Origin: Candidatus Riflebacteria bacterium HGW-Riflebacteria-1
GTDB lineage: Bacteria; Muiribacteriota; Ozemobacteria; Ozemobacterales; Ozemobacteraceae
DNA: 64,000 nucleotides
Direction of reading: 5' to 3'
Assembly: GCA_002839445.1 (NCBI GenBank)
Contig: PGYB01000001.1
Coordinates: 282,735-346,734, forward strand
Shown: positions 40,145-53,015 of the stretch, piece after piece
Numbering within the stretch: the stretch's first letter is position 1
Layout of the letters: each line of letters begins with the position of its first letter
Made by a program: the position numbers and the translations under genes
Notes under the pieces: generated by a model
The model's database searches: none
Seen by the model: the letters and a program-made list of their open reading frames with translations, nothing else
Told to the model about the DNA's origin: nothing

Positions 40145-40356
40145 ACTGATCTGTAACCTCCAGAAATTGAGCTGATATAAAGTGCTCTCCCGTTGTATCG
40201 GCAGATTTGTTTATGTAAATTAGAAGTCTTTTAAAAACGCCGGCAAACCAGAATATGATTTTTATGCAGATTTTTTTGCAGATTTTGTTCACAAATATGC
40301 GAAAGCTGCCGAAAAGGTTGAAGATTTTACATCGTTATCTTATTCTCAGGACAGTT

Positions 40357-40965
40357 ATGAAAGAAATCAGCAAAGCACTTGCCTGTATAGTCACACTCAT
40401 ACTCTCCGGCCTCTATTCGCTGGTCATGTATCCGCTGTATCTCTGCAGAAACCTGGGTTATCATTTCAGGTCGCCTTCGGTACTGTTATACGCCACTATT
40501 TTCTTTATCGTCGACCGCTACACCAAGCTGTTGGTGGTTAATCATTCGCATCAGCTTCCGATAAAGGTGATCGACGATTTTTTCACACTGACCTATGTTA
40601 AGAACCCTGGCGTTGCCTTTGGCTGGTTTCCCGACTGGCGGTTGCCACCCATCATTATGGCGCTGACCATGATCATCATCATCTCTTACTACAGTCTCAA
40701 ACTGCCAGAAGAAGAGCGCCTGACGCGTTGGTCGCTGGCTCTGCTCGTTGGCGGCGCGATTGGCAATCTTTATGACCGCGTCGTTTATGGTTTTGTCGTT
40801 GACTTTTTCCTGTTTCATTTTGGCTCATTTGATTTTCCGGTGTTCAATATCGCCGACATCGCAATTGACGTTGGAGTGTTCATGCTGTTCGTAGACATCT
40901 TTTTCCTCAGCCCCGATGAAGATGAGGAAAACAACAATGAAAGCCTGGCGTCAACCTCGGCCTGA
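40357..40965 (+). CDS. lspA: lipoprotein signal peptidase II
   Basis: NPGVAFGWF and YDRVVYGFVVDF...FPVFNIADIAID motifs. The start is uncertain; the ORF extends to 40255. Confidence 0.75.
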   Translation: MKEISKALACIVTLILSGLYSLVMYPLYLCRNLGYHFRSPSVLLYATIFFIVDRYTKLLVVNHSHQLPIKVIDDFFTLTYVKNPGVAFGWFPDWRLPPIIMALTMIIIISYYSLKLPEEERLTRWSLALLVGGAIGNLYDRVVYGFVVDFFLFHFGSFDFPVFNIADIAIDVGVFMLFVDIFFLSPDEDEENNNESLASTSA

Positions 40966-40971
40966 CCAGGG

Positions 40972-41760
40972 ATGTACCCGATACTTTTTTCGACGCCCTG
41001 GTTCAATGTCTACAGTTATGGCCTGTTGATAGCTCTTGGCTACGCGCTGGGAACAATCCTGATCCTCAGAGAAGCACGCCGTGAAGGTCTAAATAGCGAA
41101 GCAATTTTTGATATGCTTCTTTTGCAGCTCGTTGTGGGCATATGCGGATCAAGACTGCTGTTTGTTCTCGAATACACCCCGGAAAAGCTCAATTTTAAAG
41201 ATTTTTTTGCGTTTGAGCAGGGCGGCCTGACCTTTTACGGTGCCGTAATCAGCAGCTTCATCTTTGACCTGCTCTATCTCAAGTTTCGCAAAATACCATT
41301 CTGGAAGGTCATGGACTGCATAGGGTTTGGCCTGCCGGCAGGCATTGCCGTGGCCAGACTTGGCTGCCTGATGAATGGCTGCTGCTATGGAACCAGCAGT
41401 GATTCCCCATGGGCAATGACTTTTACCGATGCCGGGCCCGGCGGCCATCACCCGACCCAGCTCTATGAGTCTCTCGGCGCCGTTTTTATCTTTTTGCTGC
41501 TCAGGTATTTACGTGCCTGGCGCCGCAATTATGGCGAAATATTTCTGGCAGGAACGGCTTTATACGGTATTATCAGATTTTTTATCGAATTTGTCAGGGC
41601 GGAAAATCCTGTGGTAATTGCCGGCTTGACCATGGCCCAGATCATAGGAATACTGGCTCTGGCAGCCAGCGCGGTCGCCTGGAAAAAAATTGCCGCCACA
41701 AAAGACATGCGGGTCATGCCAAACCTTGATACTGTTGAAATACGGCCACGCCATGATTAA
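40972..41760 (+). CDS. lgt: prolipoprotein diacylglyceryl transferase
   Basis: MYPILFSTPWFNVYSYGLLIALGY..., ARLGCLMNGCCYG, HPTQLYES signatures. Confidence 0.85.
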   Translation: MYPILFSTPWFNVYSYGLLIALGYALGTILILREARREGLNSEAIFDMLLLQLVVGICGSRLLFVLEYTPEKLNFKDFFAFEQGGLTFYGAVISSFIFDLLYLKFRKIPFWKVMDCIGFGLPAGIAVARLGCLMNGCCYGTSSDSPWAMTFTDAGPGGHHPTQLYESLGAVFIFLLLRYLRAWRRNYGEIFLAGTALYGIIRFFIEFVRAENPVVIAGLTMAQIIGILALAASAVAWKKIAATKDMRVMPNLDTVEIRPRHD

Positions 41761-42541
41761 TGGAATCTATTTCGGGCTGCCCTACTACACTTACGGGATT
41801 CTGGTCCTTATCGCCTTTCTGGCCGGAATATGGCTGTTCAGGCGCAACGCCCGTCAACTGAGCCTTGCCGTTCCAGACCTTGTCGATCTCTCTCTGGTAA
41901 TAAGCATTTCGGGTCTGATTGGCGCACGAGCAGCTTACATATTGCTTTTTCCCGAACAGTTCAGCACCATACGTGACTATCTGGCTATTCACGAGGGCGG
42001 CCTGGTATTCTACGGTTCCTTGATCGGCGCAGTAATTGCGACGGCAATATATTGTCAGGCTACAGGGTACAGTTTCAGAAAGCTGGTCGACCTGATTGCG
42101 CCAGCAGCAGCGCTTGGGCACGCAATCGGCCGTCTGGGATGCATCAACAACAACTGCTGTTATGGAGCAGTAACAACCACATACTCTATTTACCGTCTGC
42201 CTGGCGATCCGCCAGGGCAGTTCAGACACCCAACACAGATTTACGAGAGTCTGTTTCTGCTGGTTCTGCTGTTTGTTCTCAATCGCCTGCTAAGAATTTG
42301 TTACGCTGGAACATCAACTAAAAGCGGTCTTGTCGCAGGAATTTATCTTGCGGCCTATTCTTTTTTCAGATTTCTGATAGAATACATTCGAGGCGATTCA
42401 CGCGGCGGCTTTTACACCGCCTATAATTTATCGCCATCTCAGATAACCGCAGTTATTCTGCTATTGTGTTCGGCAGCCTGTATCGCTTATGCTGTCAAAT
42501 ATCCTATTGCTAACCGGGGAAAAACCGATGAACAGAGTTGA
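41753..42541 (+). CDS. lgt: prolipoprotein diacylglyceryl transferase, tandem paralog
   Basis: MINGIYFGLPYYTYGILVLIAF..., GRLGCINNNCCYG, HPTQIYES. ATG overlaps the first lgt stop (ATGATTAA). Confidence 0.8.
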   Translation: MINGIYFGLPYYTYGILVLIAFLAGIWLFRRNARQLSLAVPDLVDLSLVISISGLIGARAAYILLFPEQFSTIRDYLAIHEGGLVFYGSLIGAVIATAIYCQATGYSFRKLVDLIAPAAALGHAIGRLGCINNNCCYGAVTTTYSIYRLPGDPPGQFRHPTQIYESLFLLVLLFVLNRLLRICYAGTSTKSGLVAGIYLAAYSFFRFLIEYIRGDSRGGFYTAYNLSPSQITAVILLLCSAACIAYAVKYPIANRGKTDEQS

Positions 42542-44610: not shown

Positions 44611-45459
44611 GTGCAGACTGCCGATTTAAAGACTGTCATGCGCAAACATAAGTATTTTACCAGCTTTATTCTTCTCGCCCTGGTCGTTGTTTTTCTCAAC
44701 GGCGCAAGTATTCGACGTTCGGTTGAGAGGTCTGTTAAAGATCCGGTGCCGAAAGGCCGGCCCAATTACGATGCAATGTTTGCCGATGGCAAGCTGAGAA
44801 TAGCGGTATTCTGGGGATGGGATCACCCGCGCGACACAATCATGGGCTCTTTTCCTGCTTTCGAAACACTTAACGGCAAGCGCCTGTATTACAAAGGCAA
44901 GCCGGTGCTCATCGAGATCGGCATGATCACCCAGATTAACGAAAAGCCAAAAGCGATCTTCAAGTCAGCTCTTGAAGACAAAACTATCGACATGGTCATA
45001 TATTCAGGGCACGCCCGCTACGGCAAGGGCATGGCCTTTGAATCGATGGAAGACATCTTCAAGTGCGGCAATGGCGACCTGGTCGAAGATCGGCACGTTA
45101 CACCAGCCAAAGTTTTCAAGGCAACCGCAGATGACCTTGACGCGACAAATTTCCCGCAAAGCTACAAAATTGTCATGCTCAATTGCTGCGATTCACAGGG
45201 GCATTTCCGCCAGAGCTGGGCAAGACGCTTCAAAGAATGCGGGGCTCCCGTAGAACTTTTGACCGTTGAGTTTCCAGTTTTCAACATCGCAGATCACCGC
45301 CGCGTGCTTAACCTGCTACGCGATGTGCTGGCCTTTGCTGACTGGAAAACGATCAAGAAAAACTACGATTCAGAGATCCACCGCCGCAAAAATCGCCTGA
45401 TAATCGACCCGGTATACAACCACAGCGATGATGATTTTGCCATGGACAGCGCCTTTTAA
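44611..45459 (+). CDS. secreted/anchored protein with a candidate caspase-like (clan CD) His/Cys dyad
   Basis: IDMVIYSGHARYGKG and KIVMLNCCDSQG resemble the metacaspase (Y/F)SGHG and D-x-C-H-S-G blocks. The start is uncertain (GTG 44611 or ATG 44638). Confidence 0.35.
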   Translation: MQTADLKTVMRKHKYFTSFILLALVVVFLNGASIRRSVERSVKDPVPKGRPNYDAMFADGKLRIAVFWGWDHPRDTIMGSFPAFETLNGKRLYYKGKPVLIEIGMITQINEKPKAIFKSALEDKTIDMVIYSGHARYGKGMAFESMEDIFKCGNGDLVEDRHVTPAKVFKATADDLDATNFPQSYKIVMLNCCDSQGHFRQSWARRFKECGAPVELLTVEFPVFNIADHRRVLNLLRDVLAFADWKTIKKNYDSEIHRRKNRLIIDPVYNHSDDDFAMDSAF

Positions 45460-45606: not shown

Positions 45607-45635
45607 TTGAACCGCAGTGTTTTTTGCTGTACACT
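45607..45635 (+). promoter_or_regulatory. putative sigma-70 promoter of the K+ channel gene
   Basis: TTGAAC, 17-nt spacer, TACACT. The ATG at 45645 is about 10 nt from the -10, so the leader is short or absent. Confidence 0.3.
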
Positions 45636-45644
45636 GAGCGGCAT

Positions 45645-46652
45645 ATGAACATTCAACAGCGCATGCTCAACCTGACCTTCACACTGCTTTTTCTGCTGCT
45701 GTGCGGGACAATTGCCTATCGCGTCGTTGAGGGTGACCACTGGACCATGCTCGATGGTCTGTTCATGACGGTAATAACTCTATTCACAGTTGGCTATTCA
45801 GAGGTCCACACTCTTTCCAACAATGGGCGCCTGCTCACGATAGTTCTGATACTTCTTGGCGGCGGCTTCATGGCCTATGCCGCCTCAACCATTGCACAGA
45901 TGCTTTTCGAAGGAAAACTTCGCGAAATTTGGGGGCTCAAAAAAATGCGTAAACAGATCGACGAATTGAAGAATCATTACATCATATGCGGTGCTGGAAA
46001 AACGGCACAGGAGATCATTAAAAGCCTTAAGAACAGCGCCCCCAGGCAGTTTGTCGTCATAGACATTGATCACAGCCGCATTGACAAGTTGCAGCAGGAT
46101 AATATTTTTGCGATCGAAGGCGACGCGACTTCTGATGAAATACTCATGGATGCTGGCATTGAGCGGGCAGCCGGGCTTGCGGTAACTTTGCCAACCGATG
46201 CCGACAACCTCTTTGTCACTCTTTCGGCGAAGGGCTTTAAGAGTGACCTCTTCGTAGTTGCCAAGGCAGAAAAAATAGACAGTATAGCCAAGTTACGCAA
46301 AGCAGGCGCCAACAAGGTTGTTTCTCCGAACATTATAGCTGGAGCCCGTATGGCGTCGATGCTTTACCGTCCATCGGTGGTTGACTTCATGGATGCTGCA
46401 CTGGCAGGCGACAGCAAGGCAATGATGATGGAGGAATTCAGGATTCAAGGTCAATCCTATCTTGATGGCAAAGCAATTAAAGATGCCGAAATCAGGCAGC
46501 GCTCAGGCGCTATTATAGTATCGGTGCGACGCGACAATGAAACCACAGTGAATCCGCTGCCAACGTTCGTTTTTAAGGCATGTGACATACTTGTGGTTCT
46601 GGGTACTGATGAGCAGATCAAGAATTTTTCACCTTTAACAGTAGTTAAATGA
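45645..46652 (+). CDS. RCK-domain (TrkA-N/TrkA-C) gated K+ channel, MthK/Kch-like
   Basis: 2-TM pore with TVGYS selectivity filter, GAGKTAQEI Rossmann (TrkA-N), C-terminal TrkA-C. Confidence 0.75.
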   Translation: MNIQQRMLNLTFTLLFLLLCGTIAYRVVEGDHWTMLDGLFMTVITLFTVGYSEVHTLSNNGRLLTIVLILLGGGFMAYAASTIAQMLFEGKLREIWGLKKMRKQIDELKNHYIICGAGKTAQEIIKSLKNSAPRQFVVIDIDHSRIDKLQQDNIFAIEGDATSDEILMDAGIERAAGLAVTLPTDADNLFVTLSAKGFKSDLFVVAKAEKIDSIAKLRKAGANKVVSPNIIAGARMASMLYRPSVVDFMDAALAGDSKAMMMEEFRIQGQSYLDGKAIKDAEIRQRSGAIIVSVRRDNETTVNPLPTFVFKACDILVVLGTDEQIKNFSPLTVVK

Positions 46653-46671
46653 CCAGGATTGGGAGGGCATA

Positions 46672-49600
46672 ATGAATTACCGATTTTCGCTAGTGGTTCT
46701 ACTAATTTTCGCAACAGCAGCTGCTCTGTTGGGTGCCAGCCAACAGGAAATCACACAGATGCAGATGCGCAACAATATACCTGCGCAGATGCAAACACAG
46801 AGCGCAAACACTGATTATAACAGCGTGCCGGCGGCCACAATTAATTCAACGAATGCCTCAGAAAACCCGGATTTTGTGCAGAGCCAGACAAAAGCAGCAA
46901 CGACCAGCATAAAAACGGTTAAGACGCTGGTTCCCTATGAAGACCTTTACAAGGTGCTCCAGCAGGATATTGGCAAGTATTTTATTTTGCCGATAGAAGA
47001 GTTCGAAAAGCTCAAATCGGCAAAAGAAGCCTGGCTGGCCTCAGCGAGCAAACCAGTTACTGCGCCGCCACCGTTGTCTTACCAGATCAATTCAGCATCA
47101 ATAGACGGTCAGATTGAAGAAAATTTTGCGCGCCTGAACGTAACTTTCAAGCTCGAAACTTTTACCGACGCCTGGCATGAAATTCCTCTTCTCTGGGGCA
47201 GTCTCGCCGTTTCAGCGGTCAGACTGAATGATGCGCTCACTACTCTCAAGACCAGCTGGATCGACACCAACACACGTCAGGTGCAGTTTGGCAAGATCAG
47301 CAAGCGCAGCAACATGATGAACATGTATCAGGCTGCTTCTGGCGGCAGCGACAGCCTGAGCCAGAATAACTGGAAAGACACTATGTTTTCTTTGCCGGTA
47401 TTTGGCAAGGGCACACACGAATGCCAGATTTCATTTGTTGTGCCGATTCAGAACATCGAAGACCTCTTTACCCTTCAGTTCAGCATGACGCGCATACCGC
47501 TCACCTTTATCGAGCTGCAGGCAAAGGATTTCATTCTTTCCATCGACAGCAGCAGCTTTAAGGATTTCACTGTCAGCGAGCAGCCGCAGGCAAAGGGCTG
47601 CACCTTCATTGGCTGGCTCGGCGCCAACAGCGACATCTCGATAAAATGGCGCAGAAGAGTTCTACGTGCAGCGATCATAGCAGATCCGGTCATTGAGCCA
47701 ACACCCGACATCGACGCACCCGTTTCAACTGAACCAGCACAGGTCAAGCCCGATCGCGTAACTGCACCCATCAAACCAATTATCTACGCACGTTCGCAAA
47801 CTCTGGTCACTCTAGGCGAGACCGCCATACATTCATACAAAATATTTGACTTTAAAATCAGCAAGGCCCCGGTAACCCAGTTCTATTTCAGCATTCCTGC
47901 CGGGGTCGAAATAGTTTCGGTAACTGGCGACCGCCAGGTCAACCAGCGCATGTTGCTTGAACACGGCCAGAGAAGGCTGCAGGTAGAATTTCAGGCTGGC
48001 CGCGAAGATGCCTGCCAGATCACTATCGCTTATGAATCTCCGGTAAATATGACCAGCGCCACGATAGGTATTCCAGAGGTTACTCCACTGCAGATAGAGC
48101 GAGAACTTGGAACCATAGCGATTGAGGCACTTACCTCAATTGAAGTGCAACCCGGAAATGATGAAAAAGAGCCACTCAAAAAAGGCGTTTTCCCGATCGA
48201 CCCGCAAGAAGCTCCGGTGACAATCAAAGCACGCGCCACCATGCCCCTGCTGCTGGCTTATCGCCACAACACCAGCCCTACCGGCATAATGCTCGGAGTA
48301 AAGCGCTATCAGGATGTGCCGCAGCAGACAGTAGTTGCCGACAGTCTTGAGGTCAAAACGACATTTACCACCAACAAGACAAGCAACTCACTGATCAGCC
48401 TGAACATCCGCAACAACAACAAGCAGTATCTTCAGCTGCAGCTCGCTTCCGGGTCTGAGATCGTTTCGGCCTTCAGAGGCGGCCAGGCTGTAAAGCTGGT
48501 TGCCGGCAGAAACGACGGCAAAGTGCAGATTCCGCTTGAAATGAGCCAGGTAGTGGGCGAAACGGTTCAGCAGAACCTGCAGATATTTTTAAAGAACCCG
48601 GTCAGCGAAGTCAAATGGCGCGGCGGCCTGGAATTCTCGCCGCCGTTGATCGACATACCGATTTCAAGATTCACCTGGTTTCTCTATGCACCAGAAGACT
48701 ACCATCTCTATGATTTTTCCGGCACGGTCAAAGACGCCAGAACGCGCAAAGACCCGTTTTTCTTCAGAGGTTTCATGCGCCTGCTTAAACTGGCGTGGGG
48801 AATCGTGACCAGCCCTGACGCAGTCTTTGGCATTGGCTTTTTTGTTTTTCTGGTATTGCTGATCGTGTCGAGAAAGCTGCTGTTCGCCATTCTCAAGGGC
48901 ATCTGGGAAATGATCTGCGCGATTTTCGGCATGCTGTTTTCCGGCAGAGGTTTCAGGCTGGGCGAACTCATGGTAGTCATCGCAGTAATCGCTGTTCTGG
49001 CGGCAATTGCCACGCCCAATTTCCGCAAAGCGCGCGAACAAGCGCGCGATAAGGCCTGCATGGCCAACATCAGGGTTCTAACCGGTGCCGTTGAAATGTA
49101 TAACATGGACAAAACACCGATGATGACTAATCTAAACATGGAACTCCTGATAAAGAACCATTTTCTCAAGAGCCCAATCATTGGAGCAGAAAAGGACTGT
49201 CGCTATGTAGCGAGCGGTAATCTGAACGAAGACGGCCAGATATACTGCCAGCTGCATGGAAACCTGGAAGGACAAAGACCTTCTGAAACAAAAGCAAGAA
49301 CGATGGCAAGTGCTGATTATGGTGCCAAGTCAATGCTGTCAAAGAGTGATGTCGCAATGGAACAGCAGGCAATGTCAGGCAGATCTGCCGACGCACCGGC
49401 AGTCGGGCAGAAACCCGGCTTTGGTGCCGCCAGAACCCATGGCATGCTGCCAATCAACACCAAATTTGTCATGACGAGAAACTACTATATGCTTGAGCGC
49501 GATCTGGTTATCTGCGACGTGGCCAGCAATGGCGCACTGATCGCCAATTCAACCAGCCCGACAGTAAGAGTCAGTTATCTGCACAATTCTGTAGTGCGCT

Positions 49601-52308
49601 CGGCCGAAGTTATTGCCTTTGTAATAGCCTTGTTCAGCGGTCTCTACTTTGTTTCTGGGGCATTCTACAAATATTCTGCCAAAATCACTTTTGCCGGTCT
49701 GATAATCGTTCTGCTCTCAATCGTAGACTTCAAGATCGGATCAGTCGGAGACAGCGCGAATACCGGCCTCTGGTTAGCACTTGGCGGCGCGTTCATCTGG
49801 AAATTCTTCTGGATACTCAGTAAGCTCAATCTGTTCAAGAGTGATGGCAGCGACCAGATACCACCTTCGATTCCACCTTCGACACCAGGAACGAGAAAAT
49901 TCAGTAATGGCGAAATGAACGCCGGCGATGTATTCGGCACCCGGCCTGGTGCTGGCTGCACCGGCATTAAAACACTGCTGCTGCTGCTTTTCATTCTGAC
50001 AGCGCTGGCGGTTTTGCCACTGGCGGCGCAGGAAACTCGTGAAGTCAGAATCATGGCGCCATTCAAGGATCTGTCAAGCATACTCCCGACAGGAGAACGT
50101 TCTGTAATCATACCAGAGAGCGACTACCGCTATCTGACCGACATCAAGGTTCCTGAAAAGCCTGAACAGTTTGCACCACAGAGTTATCAGTTCGGCTCAG
50201 TAATTTACCGTGGACACATTGAGGAGCGCGGCGTCAGGTTTGTTGCAGAATACCGATTGCAGCTCTTTAACAAAGAATGGAAAAAGATCGAACTGCTGTC
50301 ACCTGAGGTGATTCCATCAAAAGCGAGCATCAATGGGGCGGCGCTGGCGCTGACCCTCATGGAATCGCGAGGAATGGCGGCATACGGCTTTTTGACCGAT
50401 GCAACCGGCAGCGTTGACATCAGCGTAGAATTCTTCGTGCCAATGGATTCAAGCGAATTCCGGCACACCCATCGCTTTACCCTGCCGACACTTCCGGTGT
50501 GCATATCCACGCTGCATCTGACGGTTGACGAAAAAGACTGCGAGGCCTGGATCGACCCGGGAGTTCTCGGCAAAGCAGAGCGTGTGGACAACAAGTCGAT
50601 TTTCAAAGCTATTCTTCCACCAACGGCGGCGGTAAAGGTAGAGATTTACCGGACAACGGCACAGGCGGTTGCTGTAGAAACAACAGAACCTGAAGAAGTT
50701 GAGCCAGACAAGCCGGTGGTAATTGAAGAAAAGACCAGGATCAGCGTCTATCAGCTTGCCATGCTCTACTTCAGAGAAGGATTTGTCAGCGGCACGCATG
50801 TATTCGACATAGACATCAAGGGCGGCAGCGGAATTTCGAGCCTGAGCTTCATTCTGCCCGACCGCATCAGAATACAGAAGATTGACAACCGTCTCATCGA
50901 CGACTGGAAAATCAACGAAGACAGTCAACCACGCAGACTGGAAGTAGTTTTCAAGTCGCAGATCAGGGGCAAAACCCAGCTGACTATCGAATATGAAGAT
51001 GACATGCAGAATCTGAAAGACGAAAGTTATAAATTTGGCGAAATACACGTTGCCCATGCTGAGCGTTCTTCTGGAATAATCGGGATTGGCTGCCTGCAGA
51101 CTCTTGAAATTCTTGCCAATGAAACGCCGCAGGGCTTTGATACGCTTAACCCGGCCGAGTTTCTCAACAATTGGAAGCTCGAGCGCCCCGAAAAGACGCC
51201 TTACGCATTCAGATTTGTCAGGTATCCCGACGGCGTTGCCGAGGTTGGGGCTCCGGATCCGACCGTTCCCGTCAACTATTCAACTGCGGTCGCGACGAAC
51301 AGGTTGACCCTTACTATAACCCGCCCTGAAGATATCAGCGTGCAGACAGCAACGATTGATCGCGCAGAAGCGATGACCCTGCTCAATGAAGACGGTTACA
51401 TGATCACCAGGGTTGTTTATGAGGTTCGCAACCATTCACAGCAGTTTCTCAAGGTTCGCCTGCCGAAACTCGAGAGTTACGAGACCGAACTCTGGAGCAC
51501 CCAGGTCGCTGGTCTGGCGGTTCGCGCCGGCTTTGACAAAGAGAACGGTGTTTACAATCTGCCGATAATCAGTTCTCAGTCTGAGAGGGGCGAGTCAAGG
51601 GCGTTTCCGGTCGAACTGGTTTTCACAATACGCACCGGCAAATCGCTGCAGGCATTCAACCCGATAAAAATGGAACTGCCGGCAGCACACCTGCCGATCA
51701 GCGAATTGAGCTGGGTTCTTTATCTGCCGGAAGGTTATGAGCTGATGCGTGAAGTCGGCAATCTCGACCGCTCAGTAAAAGTATCTGACCTCAAGTTTCT
51801 CGACAAGCCCGATTACTTTTCGAGCGTATCAAGTGCGGTTAACATGCAGATGCGCCAGAAGGGCAATTATCAGCAGACACAGCAACAGACGCAGAGTTCA
51901 TCAGAAAAGAATTTTGGCATGGCCGGCATGCTTCCGGTCAAGTTCAATATCCCGAAAACCCAGTGGGCGACGCACTTCACCATGTTGCAGATCGAACCAG
52001 ACAGCAGACCACCGTTCATAGACGGCATGCTGGTCAACCCGCGCAAGGGCAAGGGTTTTGCCTTTCAGATACTGATGATTCTCGCCGGCATGCTGGCAGC
52101 GTTTGGACTGGTGCGTCTGGCTATAACGCGGCGCTACGGCTGGTTTATCCTGCTGGCTGTGCTTGGCATCATTCTTACTCTGGCGATCTACCTCAAGCTG
52201 TATCAGGCCGACCATTTCTTCCAGATGGGACTGTCGGCGGCACTGATCACCTGGCTGCTGTTCAGGTTCTTCGCCTGGCACCCGTCAGAAGAACAGAAGG
52301 GAGCCTGA
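46672..52308 (+). CDS. giant 1878-aa multi-module protein: secreted module A, internal prepilin-type domain, polytopic linker, paralogous module C
   Basis: Uninterrupted 5637-nt ORF. Layout: N-terminal signal peptide, ~740-aa module, TM, canonical prepilin segment (aa ~754-870), four predicted TMs, a second signal-like segment (aa ~1082), a second ~750-aa module, three C-terminal TMs. Confidence 0.6.
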   Translation: MNYRFSLVVLLIFATAAALLGASQQEITQMQMRNNIPAQMQTQSANTDYNSVPAATINSTNASENPDFVQSQTKAATTSIKTVKTLVPYEDLYKVLQQDIGKYFILPIEEFEKLKSAKEAWLASASKPVTAPPPLSYQINSASIDGQIEENFARLNVTFKLETFTDAWHEIPLLWGSLAVSAVRLNDALTTLKTSWIDTNTRQVQFGKISKRSNMMNMYQAASGGSDSLSQNNWKDTMFSLPVFGKGTHECQISFVVPIQNIEDLFTLQFSMTRIPLTFIELQAKDFILSIDSSSFKDFTVSEQPQAKGCTFIGWLGANSDISIKWRRRVLRAAIIADPVIEPTPDIDAPVSTEPAQVKPDRVTAPIKPIIYARSQTLVTLGETAIHSYKIFDFKISKAPVTQFYFSIPAGVEIVSVTGDRQVNQRMLLEHGQRRLQVEFQAGREDACQITIAYESPVNMTSATIGIPEVTPLQIERELGTIAIEALTSIEVQPGNDEKEPLKKGVFPIDPQEAPVTIKARATMPLLLAYRHNTSPTGIMLGVKRYQDVPQQTVVADSLEVKTTFTTNKTSNSLISLNIRNNNKQYLQLQLASGSEIVSAFRGGQAVKLVAGRNDGKVQIPLEMSQVVGETVQQNLQIFLKNPVSEVKWRGGLEFSPPLIDIPISRFTWFLYAPEDYHLYDFSGTVKDARTRKDPFFFRGFMRLLKLAWGIVTSPDAVFGIGFFVFLVLLIVSRKLLFAILKGIWEMICAIFGMLFSGRGFRLGELMVVIAVIAVLAAIATPNFRKAREQARDKACMANIRVLTGAVEMYNMDKTPMMTNLNMELLIKNHFLKSPIIGAEKDCRYVASGNLNEDGQIYCQLHGNLEGQRPSETKARTMASADYGAKSMLSKSDVAMEQQAMSGRSADAPAVGQKPGFGAARTHGMLPINTKFVMTRNYYMLERDLVICDVASNGALIANSTSPTVRVSYLHNSVVRSAEVIAFVIALFSGLYFVSGAFYKYSAKITFAGLIIVLLSIVDFKIGSVGDSANTGLWLALGGAFIWKFFWILSKLNLFKSDGSDQIPPSIPPSTPGTRKFSNGEMNAGDVFGTRPGAGCTGIKTLLLLLFILTALAVLPLAAQETREVRIMAPFKDLSSILPTGERSVIIPESDYRYLTDIKVPEKPEQFAPQSYQFGSVIYRGHIEERGVRFVAEYRLQLFNKEWKKIELLSPEVIPSKASINGAALALTLMESRGMAAYGFLTDATGSVDISVEFFVPMDSSEFRHTHRFTLPTLPVCISTLHLTVDEKDCEAWIDPGVLGKAERVDNKSIFKAILPPTAAVKVEIYRTTAQAVAVETTEPEEVEPDKPVVIEEKTRISVYQLAMLYFREGFVSGTHVFDIDIKGGSGISSLSFILPDRIRIQKIDNRLIDDWKINEDSQPRRLEVVFKSQIRGKTQLTIEYEDDMQNLKDESYKFGEIHVAHAERSSGIIGIGCLQTLEILANETPQGFDTLNPAEFLNNWKLERPEKTPYAFRFVRYPDGVAEVGAPDPTVPVNYSTAVATNRLTLTITRPEDISVQTATIDRAEAMTLLNEDGYMITRVVYEVRNHSQQFLKVRLPKLESYETELWSTQVAGLAVRAGFDKENGVYNLPIISSQSERGESRAFPVELVFTIRTGKSLQAFNPIKMELPAAHLPISELSWVLYLPEGYELMREVGNLDRSVKVSDLKFLDKPDYFSSVSSAVNMQMRQKGNYQQTQQQTQSSSEKNFGMAGMLPVKFNIPKTQWATHFTMLQIEPDSRPPFIDGMLVNPRKGKGFAFQILMILAGMLAAFGLVRLAITRRYGWFILLAVLGIILTLAIYLKLYQADHFFQMGLSAALITWLLFRFFAWHPSEEQKGA
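48931..49275 (+). other. embedded prepilin-type (GspG-like) domain with cryptic leader MLFSGRG|FRLGE
   Basis: In-frame ATG 48931. GFRLGELMVVIAVIAVLAAIATPNFRKAREQARDKACMANIRVLTGAVEMYNM is a paralog of the pilin at 24541-24906. G-1, F+1 and E+5 are intact. Confidence 0.6.
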
Positions 52309-52310
52309 CC

Positions 52311-53015
52311 TTGCTTATTGAAGACCCGACGACCGATGTAACGCCAAAAGGCCATGGCAATGAACTTAAGGGCGTACAGGGCATGATAATTCCCTTCATT
52401 CTGCTCGGTTTTGCGCTCTATTTCTGGAACTCTGCCCTGCTGCTGCCCATCAAGTATCTGACCGTGTTCTTTCATGAGCTTTCGCACGCACTGGCGTCGG
52501 TTTTAACCGGAGGCGAGGTTGTGCATATTGAAATTAACTCGAACCAGGGTGGCCTGGCGGTTACCCGGGGCGGCTGGCGTTTTATCGTTCTCAGCGCTGG
52601 CTATCTGGGCAGCCTGCTGTGGGGAAGCTTGATTCTGCTGGCGGCGGCGAAAACCCGTCATGACCAGCACATCACTGCCGGACTTGGCATTCTGCTGCTG
52701 CTGGTTACGGCAATATGGGTGCGCAATCTTGAGGGCGTCATCATCTGCGCGCTGACAGGGTTCGGGCTGCTCGGCATCGCGGCTTATTCCACAGAAAAGG
52801 TCTGCGACCAGTTCTTGAAGTTTCTCGGGCTGACATCATGCTTCTACGTGCTGTTTGACATCAAGAGCGATCTGATTGACCGCTCAATCAGTGTCTCTGA
52901 TGCATACAGAATCTCGGAAATGCTTCATGTGCCGGACTGGCTGGTGGGTGTTGTCTGGCTGGTAATTGCAGGTATAATAACCTGGAAAGTTCTTTACTGG
53001 AGTCTTGAAGAATAA
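52311..53015 (+). CDS. M50B-like HExxH polytopic membrane metallopeptidase
   Basis: TTG start 3 nt after the giant ORF's stop, AAGGGAG RBS. FFHELSHAL within the first TM region, about six TMs. The track ORF begins earlier at 51963, inside the giant gene. Confidence 0.5.
   Translation: MLIEDPTTDVTPKGHGNELKGVQGMIIPFILLGFALYFWNSALLLPIKYLTVFFHELSHALASVLTGGEVVHIEINSNQGGLAVTRGGWRFIVLSAGYLGSLLWGSLILLAAAKTRHDQHITAGLGILLLLVTAIWVRNLEGVIICALTGFGLLGIAAYSTEKVCDQFLKFLGLTSCFYVLFDIKSDLIDRSISVSDAYRISEMLHVPDWLVGVVWLVIAGIITWKVLYWSLEE

Follow-up and report, generated by a model that had tools for sequence, protein, structure and literature searches.

A complete ComGC-like pilin domain embedded in a tandemly duplicated membrane protein of Riflebacteria

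The defining feature of type IV pilins is a class-III signal peptide at the N-terminus, which is where prediction tools and annotation pipelines expect it. The major pilins and pseudopilins of the ComGC/GspG type (NF040999, TIGR01710, PF07963 plus PF26697) are small, with ComGC itself, encoded in a comG operon, reaching about 100 amino acids (aa). In modular type IV pilins, such as PilB and PilC of Streptococcus sanguinis, the class-III signal peptide lies at the extreme N-terminus, the added module is C-terminal and has no transmembrane (TM) helices, and the subunit can enter the filament. Here we describe a gene in a stretch of 64,000 nucleotides (the window) from contig PGYB01000001.1 of Candidatus Riflebacteria bacterium HGW-Riflebacteria-1. 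The open reading frame (ORF) at 46672–52308 (+) encodes 1878 residues and holds a complete pilin of the ComGC type in its interior. An earlier examination made from the letters alone (the sequence-only reading) had placed a prepilin cleavage site 760 residues into the protein, which is correct; G760 is at position −1 and F761 at +1. Throughout, a slash marks the nominal cleavage position in a motif.

The identity of the embedded domain was established by several comparisons. The sequence-only reading had proposed profile searches on the separate segments, and for the pilin these were productive, as the NCBIfam models for ComGC, GspG and PilA all matched residues 758–824 (E 8e-10 to 1e-5). When residues 754–880 were used as the query, free-standing pilins of 116–132 aa carrying PF07963 and PF26697 were recovered with 55–57% identity. 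One of these, P0206 (118 aa), is from the same organism. It has the sequence MRSRKG/FTLIELMIV...PNFRKARQQARQKAC...EKDC...QC, is 56% identical with the same pattern of three Cys, and matches over its whole length to residues 755–~872. In the embedded copy, G760, F761 and E765 are followed, as in type IV prepilins, by a hydrophobic stretch, LMVVIAVIAVLAAIAT, and P782. The family profile aligned from residue 1 of solved mature pilins (GspG 5wda, geopilin and PilA), and the predicted structure has the type IV pilin fold, a 51-residue alpha1 helix (763–813) with a small beta head. The embedded pilin is a homologue of the free pilins of the same organism. On orthologues of the window protein PF26697 (ComGC_C) gave a weak match, and a literature search on this family found nothing.

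The description of the segment as a canonical prepilin was borne out for G−1, F+1 and E+5 and is otherwise too strong. The +2 residue is R, and the Pfam N_methyl model (PF07963) reached 10.8 bits (E 0.38) on the window protein, covering model positions 11–26 only, where its cut-off is 21.2 and the free pilin P0206 scored 41.7. TIGR02532 was not among the NCBIfam matches to the window protein at E<=1. The ComGC equivalog NF040999 gave 38.8 bits against a cut-off of 75 (model positions 2–69 of 84), and DUF1559 (PF07596), in which an SBP_bac_10 domain follows the helix, gave 12.1 bits (E 0.2) against 23.3. The short N-terminal leader of prepilins (about 5–30 aa, hydrophilic and with positive charge) is lacking. 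The motif begins only at residue 757 of the 1878, and the segments ahead of it are, in order, the signal peptide, ectodomain 1, a TM helix and the amphipathic helix, which is itself hydrophobic. The K/R at −2 is its one leader-like feature.

Residues 761–~872 are a full homologue of a ComGC/GspG-type pilin, with FxLxELM...P22-NF, the long alpha1 and the three-Cys head. Unlike those proteins, the window protein carries its motif behind a 690-residue ectodomain and the other segments just listed, extends past the pilin with seven more TM helices and another ectodomain, scores under the curated cut-offs, and belongs to a family in which a third of the junction variants do without G−1, E+5 or both (below). 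Like the modular type IV pilins, it combines a pilin with large, covalently attached modules of other kinds; here, in contrast, the principal extension is on the N-terminal side, and the part C-terminal to the pilin would be locked in the membrane.

The uninterrupted frame of 1878 codons, which starts with ATG, had been judged far beyond chance, and the probability of that many open codons is indeed about 1e-39, calculated as (61/64)^1878. A strong Shine-Dalgarno sequence, GGGAGGG (46661–46667, +), lies 4 nt 5′ of the ATG at 46672. The best database match, CVV41_01350 of Candidatus Riflebacteria bacterium HGW-Riflebacteria-1, was 100% identical. The NCBI model of this protein has 1859 aa and starts 19 codons downstream (window 46672–46731), dropping the signal peptide. 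The GGGAGGG sequence and the N-terminal consensus of the orthologues, MKxR followed by a hydrophobic stretch, support the longer form. About 40 full-length orthologues (1808–1906 aa, 35–75% identity), found in NCBI, JGI, ENA and Logan assemblies, share the architecture. A scan of GTDB, with one genome per species, found the gene in 39 loci, and the junction region was present and open in 32. As one open frame runs across both junctions in more than 40 independent assemblies and in 32 GTDB species, the fusion is not an assembly artefact, and the earlier statement that it is real holds. Sequence conservation is unbroken through the junctions, and comparison with relatives, also proposed earlier, found the pilin segment to be internal in every orthologue. 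The gene and its fusion are genuine, under selection and found phylum-wide in Riflebacteria.

Nearly all of the GTDB loci are labelled Riflebacteria, Rifleibacterium or Ozemobacter(aceae). Two records with the gene, L016 and L039, are labelled Erysipelotrichia and Candidatus Methylomirabilis. Their 53–57% identity and identical synteny suggest that they are mislabelled or mis-binned Riflebacteria metagenome-assembled genomes (MAGs).

The layout of the protein (Table 1) was determined from hydropathy and from two AlphaFold2 models built on 35-sequence alignments, covering residues 1–1130 (predicted local distance difference test, pLDDT, 70) and 700–1878 (pLDDT 68). The three parts distinguished by the sequence-only reading, two large modules and a pilin, are all present. 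Their arrangement is different, as the two modules belong to two units in tandem and the pilin is inserted inside the first. What had been missed is that the modules are paralogues, with 21% identity over 669 aligned positions (E 3e-19), and modules from four species (eight sequences, both modules) align end to end. Ectodomain 1 is predicted to comprise three beta-sandwich domains, at approximately 137–330, 370–495 and 506–690. In the models, the pilin head is joined by a disordered linker to the unit-1 beta-hairpin, and a second disordered loop separates the unit-1 TM bundle, in which D1019, G1026, N1030 and W1034 are invariant in the orthologue alignment, from TM 1099–1119. Four TM helices had been claimed after the pilin; three were recovered and the fourth was not found. 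The second signal-peptide-like segment, the second module and the three C-terminal TM helices were all as described. Cleavage by signal peptidase I at TM 1099–1119 is conjecture.

Table 1. Features of the 1878-residue protein and of the adjacent genes (window positions; TM, transmembrane)
Feature	Residues	Position	Strand	Basis or remarks
N-terminal signal peptide or anchor	1–23	46672..46740	+	hydropathy peak 5–23; orthologue consensus
Ectodomain 1	76–700	46897..48771	+	AlphaFold2; Foldseek; paralogous to ectodomain 2
TM helix (out to in), first half of inserted hairpin	716–732	48817..48867	+	hydropathy, AlphaFold2
Conserved amphipathic helix	736–756	48877..48939	+	hydrophobic moment; conserved W745, F752, F756
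Class-III-signal-peptide-like motif SGRG/FRLGELM	757–767	48940..48972	+	G760 = −1, F761 = +1, E765 = +5
Complete ComGC-like pilin domain	761–872	48952..49287	+	alpha1 763–813, P782 = +22, conserved Cys 796, 843, 859
Unit-1 GMLPI beta-hairpin	921–975	49432..49596	+	superfamily motif; AlphaFold2 strands 938–946, 965–971
Unit-1 three-TM bundle	976–1051	49597..49824	+	hydropathy, AlphaFold2
Unit-2 signal-peptide-like TM, ...LPLAA/QETRE	1099–1119	49966..50028	+	hydropathy, AlphaFold2
Ectodomain 2	1120–1745	50029..51906	+	paralogue of ectodomain 1
Unit-2 GMLPV beta-hairpin	1746–1795	51907..52056	+	AlphaFold2, superfamily motif
Unit-2 C-terminal three-TM bundle	1796–1868	52057..52275	+	hydropathy, AlphaFold2
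Peptidase_M50B-like intramembrane metalloprotease, HELSH motif		52383..53015	+	Pfam E 2e-49
K+ channel (Ion_trans_2 + TrkA_N/C)		45624..46652	+	ends 20 nt upstream of the giant gene; often syntenic

A profile built from the eight-module alignment and searched exhaustively against 1.84 billion cluster representatives (clusters at 50% identity) detected 4648 proteins at E<=1e-3, 1608 of them at E<=1e-30, with lengths of about 350–2830 aa and up to nine matched stretches each. Members with source labels came from Acidobacteriota, Verrucomicrobiota, Riflebacteria and one Altiarchaeales MAG. In single-unit relatives (about 650–810 aa) a single ectodomain is accompanied by one copy of the G-x-LP-V/I...IP motif and by TM helices at the end, and in double-unit relatives the GxLPV motif is found twice. 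The window protein has GMLPI at 924 ahead of TM helices 976–1051 and GMLPV at 1752 ahead of 1796–1868, and both of its units fit the superfamily layout of a signal anchor, three beta-sandwiches, a GxLP(V/I)...IP hairpin and a terminal TM bundle. The hairpin with three TM helices is the pattern common to units 1 and 2 in the models. Direct comparison of the two hairpin-plus-TM regions gave a BLASTP E of 0.86 and an hhalign E of 0.048, weak yet in register, and duplication of this part rests on the recurrent GxLPV motif in relatives and the matching secondary structure. The two units are duplicates of each other.

BatD and DUF families, raised by the sequence-only reading as candidates for the modules, were not supported. 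Pfam returned no family at E<=1 on the whole window protein, none on the modules of four full-length relatives (DUF1559 was found on the pilin-like segment of one relative only) and none on ten mostly single-unit relatives. NCBIfam found nothing on either module, its sole non-pilin match being a weak one to TIGR04222 (E 0.76) in the C-terminal TM region. Foldseek gave ribophorin I/Ost1, integrin legs and ITIH1 as the best matches for the module fold. The resemblance to ribophorin I/Ost1 and the N-terminal beta-sandwich of M1 aminopeptidases, which are scaffold-type domains, and to ITIH1 and integrin alpha legs is one of fold only, with no sequence similarity (6–13% identity), TM-scores of at most 0.27 and no catalytic domain. 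The superfamily with beta-sandwiches, GxLPV and three TM helices is undescribed, in that Pfam recognised no family in the modules of the window protein or of the 13 relatives scanned. Full-length proteins and superfamily members are named in the databases either as 'hypothetical protein' or after the pilin piece only, some orthologues bearing the NCBI name 'prepilin-type N-terminal cleavage/methylation domain'. The sequence-only reading had allowed that the fusion might prove to be a common, already-described family; the architecture is common within one phylum yet undescribed.

The same superfamily includes proteins of the Planctomycetes-Verrucomicrobia-Chlamydiae (PVC) type annotated as 'PulG' or 'prepilin-type processing-associated H-X9-DG' (DUF1559, PF07596; P0041–P0054). 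The DUF1559 family is usually linked with planctomycetes. These proteins share with the window protein the order of beta-sandwich modules, a TM helix, an internal pilin-like helix (at residue ~970–1130 in the PVC-type proteins) and more modules. They differ in being 2100–2900 aa long with extra internal repeats, and in having mostly T, S, Q or L at +5. In P0048, Pfam places DUF1559, not a ComGC-type head, right after the pilin-like helix, and precomputed Pfam shows DUF1559 on P0049 and P0050.

The pilin, together with TM 716–732 and helix 736–756, sits in unit 1, after the ectodomain and before the linker. It is read as an insertion because three relatives (P0070, P0073 and P0078) have a plain TM hairpin at this site and a fourth (P0075) has no extra hydrophobic segment there. 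An even number of passes is expected between ectodomain 1 and the pilin head, because a signal peptide precedes ectodomain 1 and the head has the Cys pattern of secreted pilins. Helix 736–756 has polar or small residues on one face, and its hydrophobic moment is 0.36–0.39 versus 0.10–0.15 in the flanking TM helices (0.12, with a mean hydrophobicity of 0.92, in TM 716–732). From the parity of the TM passes and this high moment, we infer that it does not span the membrane and is interfacial on the cytoplasmic face, in place of a leader. The site G760/F761 would therefore also be at the cytoplasmic face.

Retention of the motif was examined in two sets. In the core clade of 35 sequences, G760 was present in 33, R762 in 34, L763 in 35, E765 in 34 and P782 in 35; F761 is conserved, and K/R is found at −2. 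The wider set was aligned by the invariant P+22-N-F and comprised 65 different junctions. G−1 and E+5 were both kept in 44 of them, E+5 only in seven, G−1 only in four and neither in ten, so that one or both hallmarks were lost in 21 of 65 with the rest of the protein intact. The −1 residue was R, M, N, T, Y, S or A in 17 of the 65 variants, and in the seven retaining E+5 only it was R, M, N, A, S or Y. By species, the full motif was found in 26 of 32 and a degenerate site in six. The helix, P+22-N-F-R-K-A-R and the head stay conserved across all junction variants. Where E+5 had been lost the replacement was mostly S, T, N, Q or H, as would suit a polar residue that takes part in helix packing. 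Decay of the motif is seen in many lineages. Mutagenesis has established that prepilin peptidases essentially require Gly at −1 for cleavage, and because G−1 has been lost in otherwise intact orthologues, cleavage does not appear to be essential for the family.

The most economical reading, to which we give a modest preference, is that of an exapted, membrane-locked pilin domain in a duplicated envelope protein, with a cleavage motif that is optional or vestigial. The gene product would be a single, giant protein of the inner membrane that crosses it about ten times. An ancestral unit, made up of a signal anchor, three non-catalytic beta-sandwiches, a linker, the GxLPV hairpin and three TM helices, was duplicated in tandem. 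Unit 1 would have received, between its ectodomain and linker, a cassette in which a TM helix and a juxtamembrane amphipathic helix precede a whole ComGC/GspG-type pilin taken from the pilin repertoire of the host itself. TM 716–732 would carry the chain into the cytoplasm and the N-terminal half of pilin alpha1 would return it outward, leaving both ectodomains and the disulphide-capable pilin head facing the periplasm. The pilin would be tethered C-terminally by seven further TM helices and N-terminally by TM 716–732 unless cut at G760. Because of this tethering it could not be extracted into a filament, and the embedded pilin is not expected to form one. Its probable present role is that of a membrane domain integral to the larger protein, not of a pilus subunit, and it would act as a fixed structural or docking domain. 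The G760/F761...E765 site would be reachable by a prepilin peptidase; should an active one exist, the protein may be cut into two chains that remain associated. Cleavage at G760/F761 would be optional, not being required for family function, and the motif a partly retained relic.

Several observations do not sit easily with a relic. Over 41–75% identity, G−1, R+2 and E+5 are near-invariant in the core clade. A buried Glu is seldom kept without function, and the near-invariant E+5 would be no less compatible with a signal still in use for cleavage or assembly than with a vestige. K/R at −2 and a position at the cytoplasmic face are exactly what prepilin peptidases use. Canonical free prepilins (RKG/FTLIE) in the same genome would imply some active prepilin peptidase. 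The structural side has its own weaknesses, as the confidence of the AlphaFold2 models was moderate (pLDDT 68–70, predicted TM-score 0.34–0.39) and helix 736–756, with a mean hydrophobicity of 0.75, is hydrophobic enough to span the membrane, so that the topology rests on the parity argument.

These points lead to the strongest competitor, an obligate polyprotein, which we regard as possible and distinctly less probable than an exapted domain. An active prepilin peptidase would cut G760/F761 in a cytoplasmic loop between two TM helices, giving a type-I anchored ectodomain-1 chain (24–760) and an N-methylated, pilin-headed chain (761–1878), whose head would engage a Com-like or type II secretion system (T2SS)-like assembly platform, for instance as a pseudopilus subunit, terminal or at the base, that stays tethered to the membrane. 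The hallmark residues, with K/R at −2 and P+22, the full motif in most junction variants and species, the predicted location of the site and the canonical ComGC-like prepilins of the same genome are all as such a protein would need. The PVC-type relatives add to this, with a DUF1559-type pilin-like segment at the same architectural position that in some cases (P0081 and P0050 among them) keeps G...E, which hints that the domain must match the machinery of its own host. Set against these are the N_methyl score below threshold and the replacement of G−1 by R, M, N, T or Y, with the rest of the protein preserved, in six lineages or more. No type IV pilus, T2SS, Com or secretion machinery was found in the part of the window scanned (16–58 kb), which holds housekeeping genes, no comG or pil genes were found in orthologous loci, and there were no pilus-machinery genes nearby in any examined locus. 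Literature searches on internal prepilin peptidase cleavage, prepilin polyproteins, Riflebacteria or Ozemobacter pili and Peptidase_M50B found nothing relevant and no precedent for an internal class-III site.

The candidate enzyme is also in question. The only PilD-like gene found, in a genome whose remainder was not searched for an A24 peptidase, follows a canonical ComGC-like pilin gene outside the window (L008:10489–11217, CVV41_02575, 242 aa) and lacks both catalytic Asp residues. The protein has the four-Cys A24_N_bact domain only, and in an alignment with canonical enzymes xDLxxxIIPD is replaced by LFVRNEV and GxGDxK by FAWGCLS. The loss is shared by the Riflebacteria orthologues (~95 clusters), and non-Riflebacteria homologues carry PF01478. 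CVV41_02575 may be a methyltransferase-only protein or a pseudo-peptidase. The broader proposal that the internal class-III signal is functional, with a prepilin peptidase or a non-canonical enzyme of the phylum cutting the cytoplasmic loop as a polyprotein-processing enzyme, is given the same rather low likelihood. The same organism has a further pilin-like protein, P0212 (CVV41_00495, L010:8001–8513; 170 aa), in which an N-terminal zinc ribbon (CxxC...CxxC) is followed by KSKSP/FTLIELL and a ComGC-like head. It has Pro at −1 and is presumably a second N-extended pilin that is not cleavable; uncleavable N-extended pilin domains would therefore be in use elsewhere in the organism.

A third possibility is that the giant protein is processed not by a prepilin peptidase but by the M50B-like metalloprotease encoded downstream. 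It would make a site-2-type cut in one of the TM helices, with the helix-breaking pilin alpha1 and the signal-like TM in the interior as possible targets, and the ectodomains would thereby be released or regulated. In at least 27 loci of Riflebacteria (including L001, L005 and L011–L049), down to orthologues with 36% identity, the M50B gene directly follows the giant gene. In the window a gap of 74 nt, in which no terminator-like site was detected, separates the two on the same strand, and the M50B protein keeps its HELSH motif. From this position the M50B protein is a plausible processing or quality-control partner. Synteny does not by itself point to a substrate, neither the P0040 lineage nor the distant relatives have the pairing, and such processing is compatible with the other readings, not exclusive of them. 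As an explanation of its own we consider it improbable.

Separate production of the pilin, from an internal start at M754 (which would give a textbook 7-residue leader, MLFSGRG/F...) or by frameshifting, and an artefactual joining of three genes are effectively refuted, as M754 is Met in 2 of 35 orthologues and has no Shine-Dalgarno sequence upstream, and the independent assemblies and species described above have a single, continuously conserved frame over both junctions.

Elsewhere in the neighbourhood, a 282-aa ORF with no Pfam match (44611–45459, +) lies upstream of the K+ channel and giant genes in most Riflebacteria loci, with 57–89% identity. Further upstream (40255–42541, +), a gene for LspA (signal peptidase II) precedes a tandem pair of genes for Lgt (prolipoprotein diacylglyceryl transferase) that overlap slightly, and this order recurs in locus L005. 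No conserved informative neighbours were found for the distant relatives or the single-unit relative, and a promoter and terminator scan gave no meaningful signal.

For the family as a whole, a complete pilin is conserved deep inside a protein of about ten passes across a phylum, and relatives in other phyla have a pilin-like segment at the same position. Database names such as 'ComGC', 'PulG' and 'prepilin-type domain protein' on proteins of 1,800–2,700 aa are misleading. Two wider results are a large superfamily (4,648 clusters) of beta-sandwich proteins anchored in the membrane and the conserved pairing with M50B. The approximately 65 junction variants form a natural series bearing on the role of G−1 and E+5 in a pilin that does not form filaments, and on whether prepilin peptidases can cut between two TM helices. 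Were the internal signal functional, the giant envelope protein would be linked to a machine resembling that of type IV filaments by an N-methylated pilin head, itself joined through a seven-TM tether to an ectodomain of 750 residues, and the ComGC-type segments of Riflebacteria and the DUF1559-type segments of the PVC-type proteins would reflect selection to match the machinery of the host.

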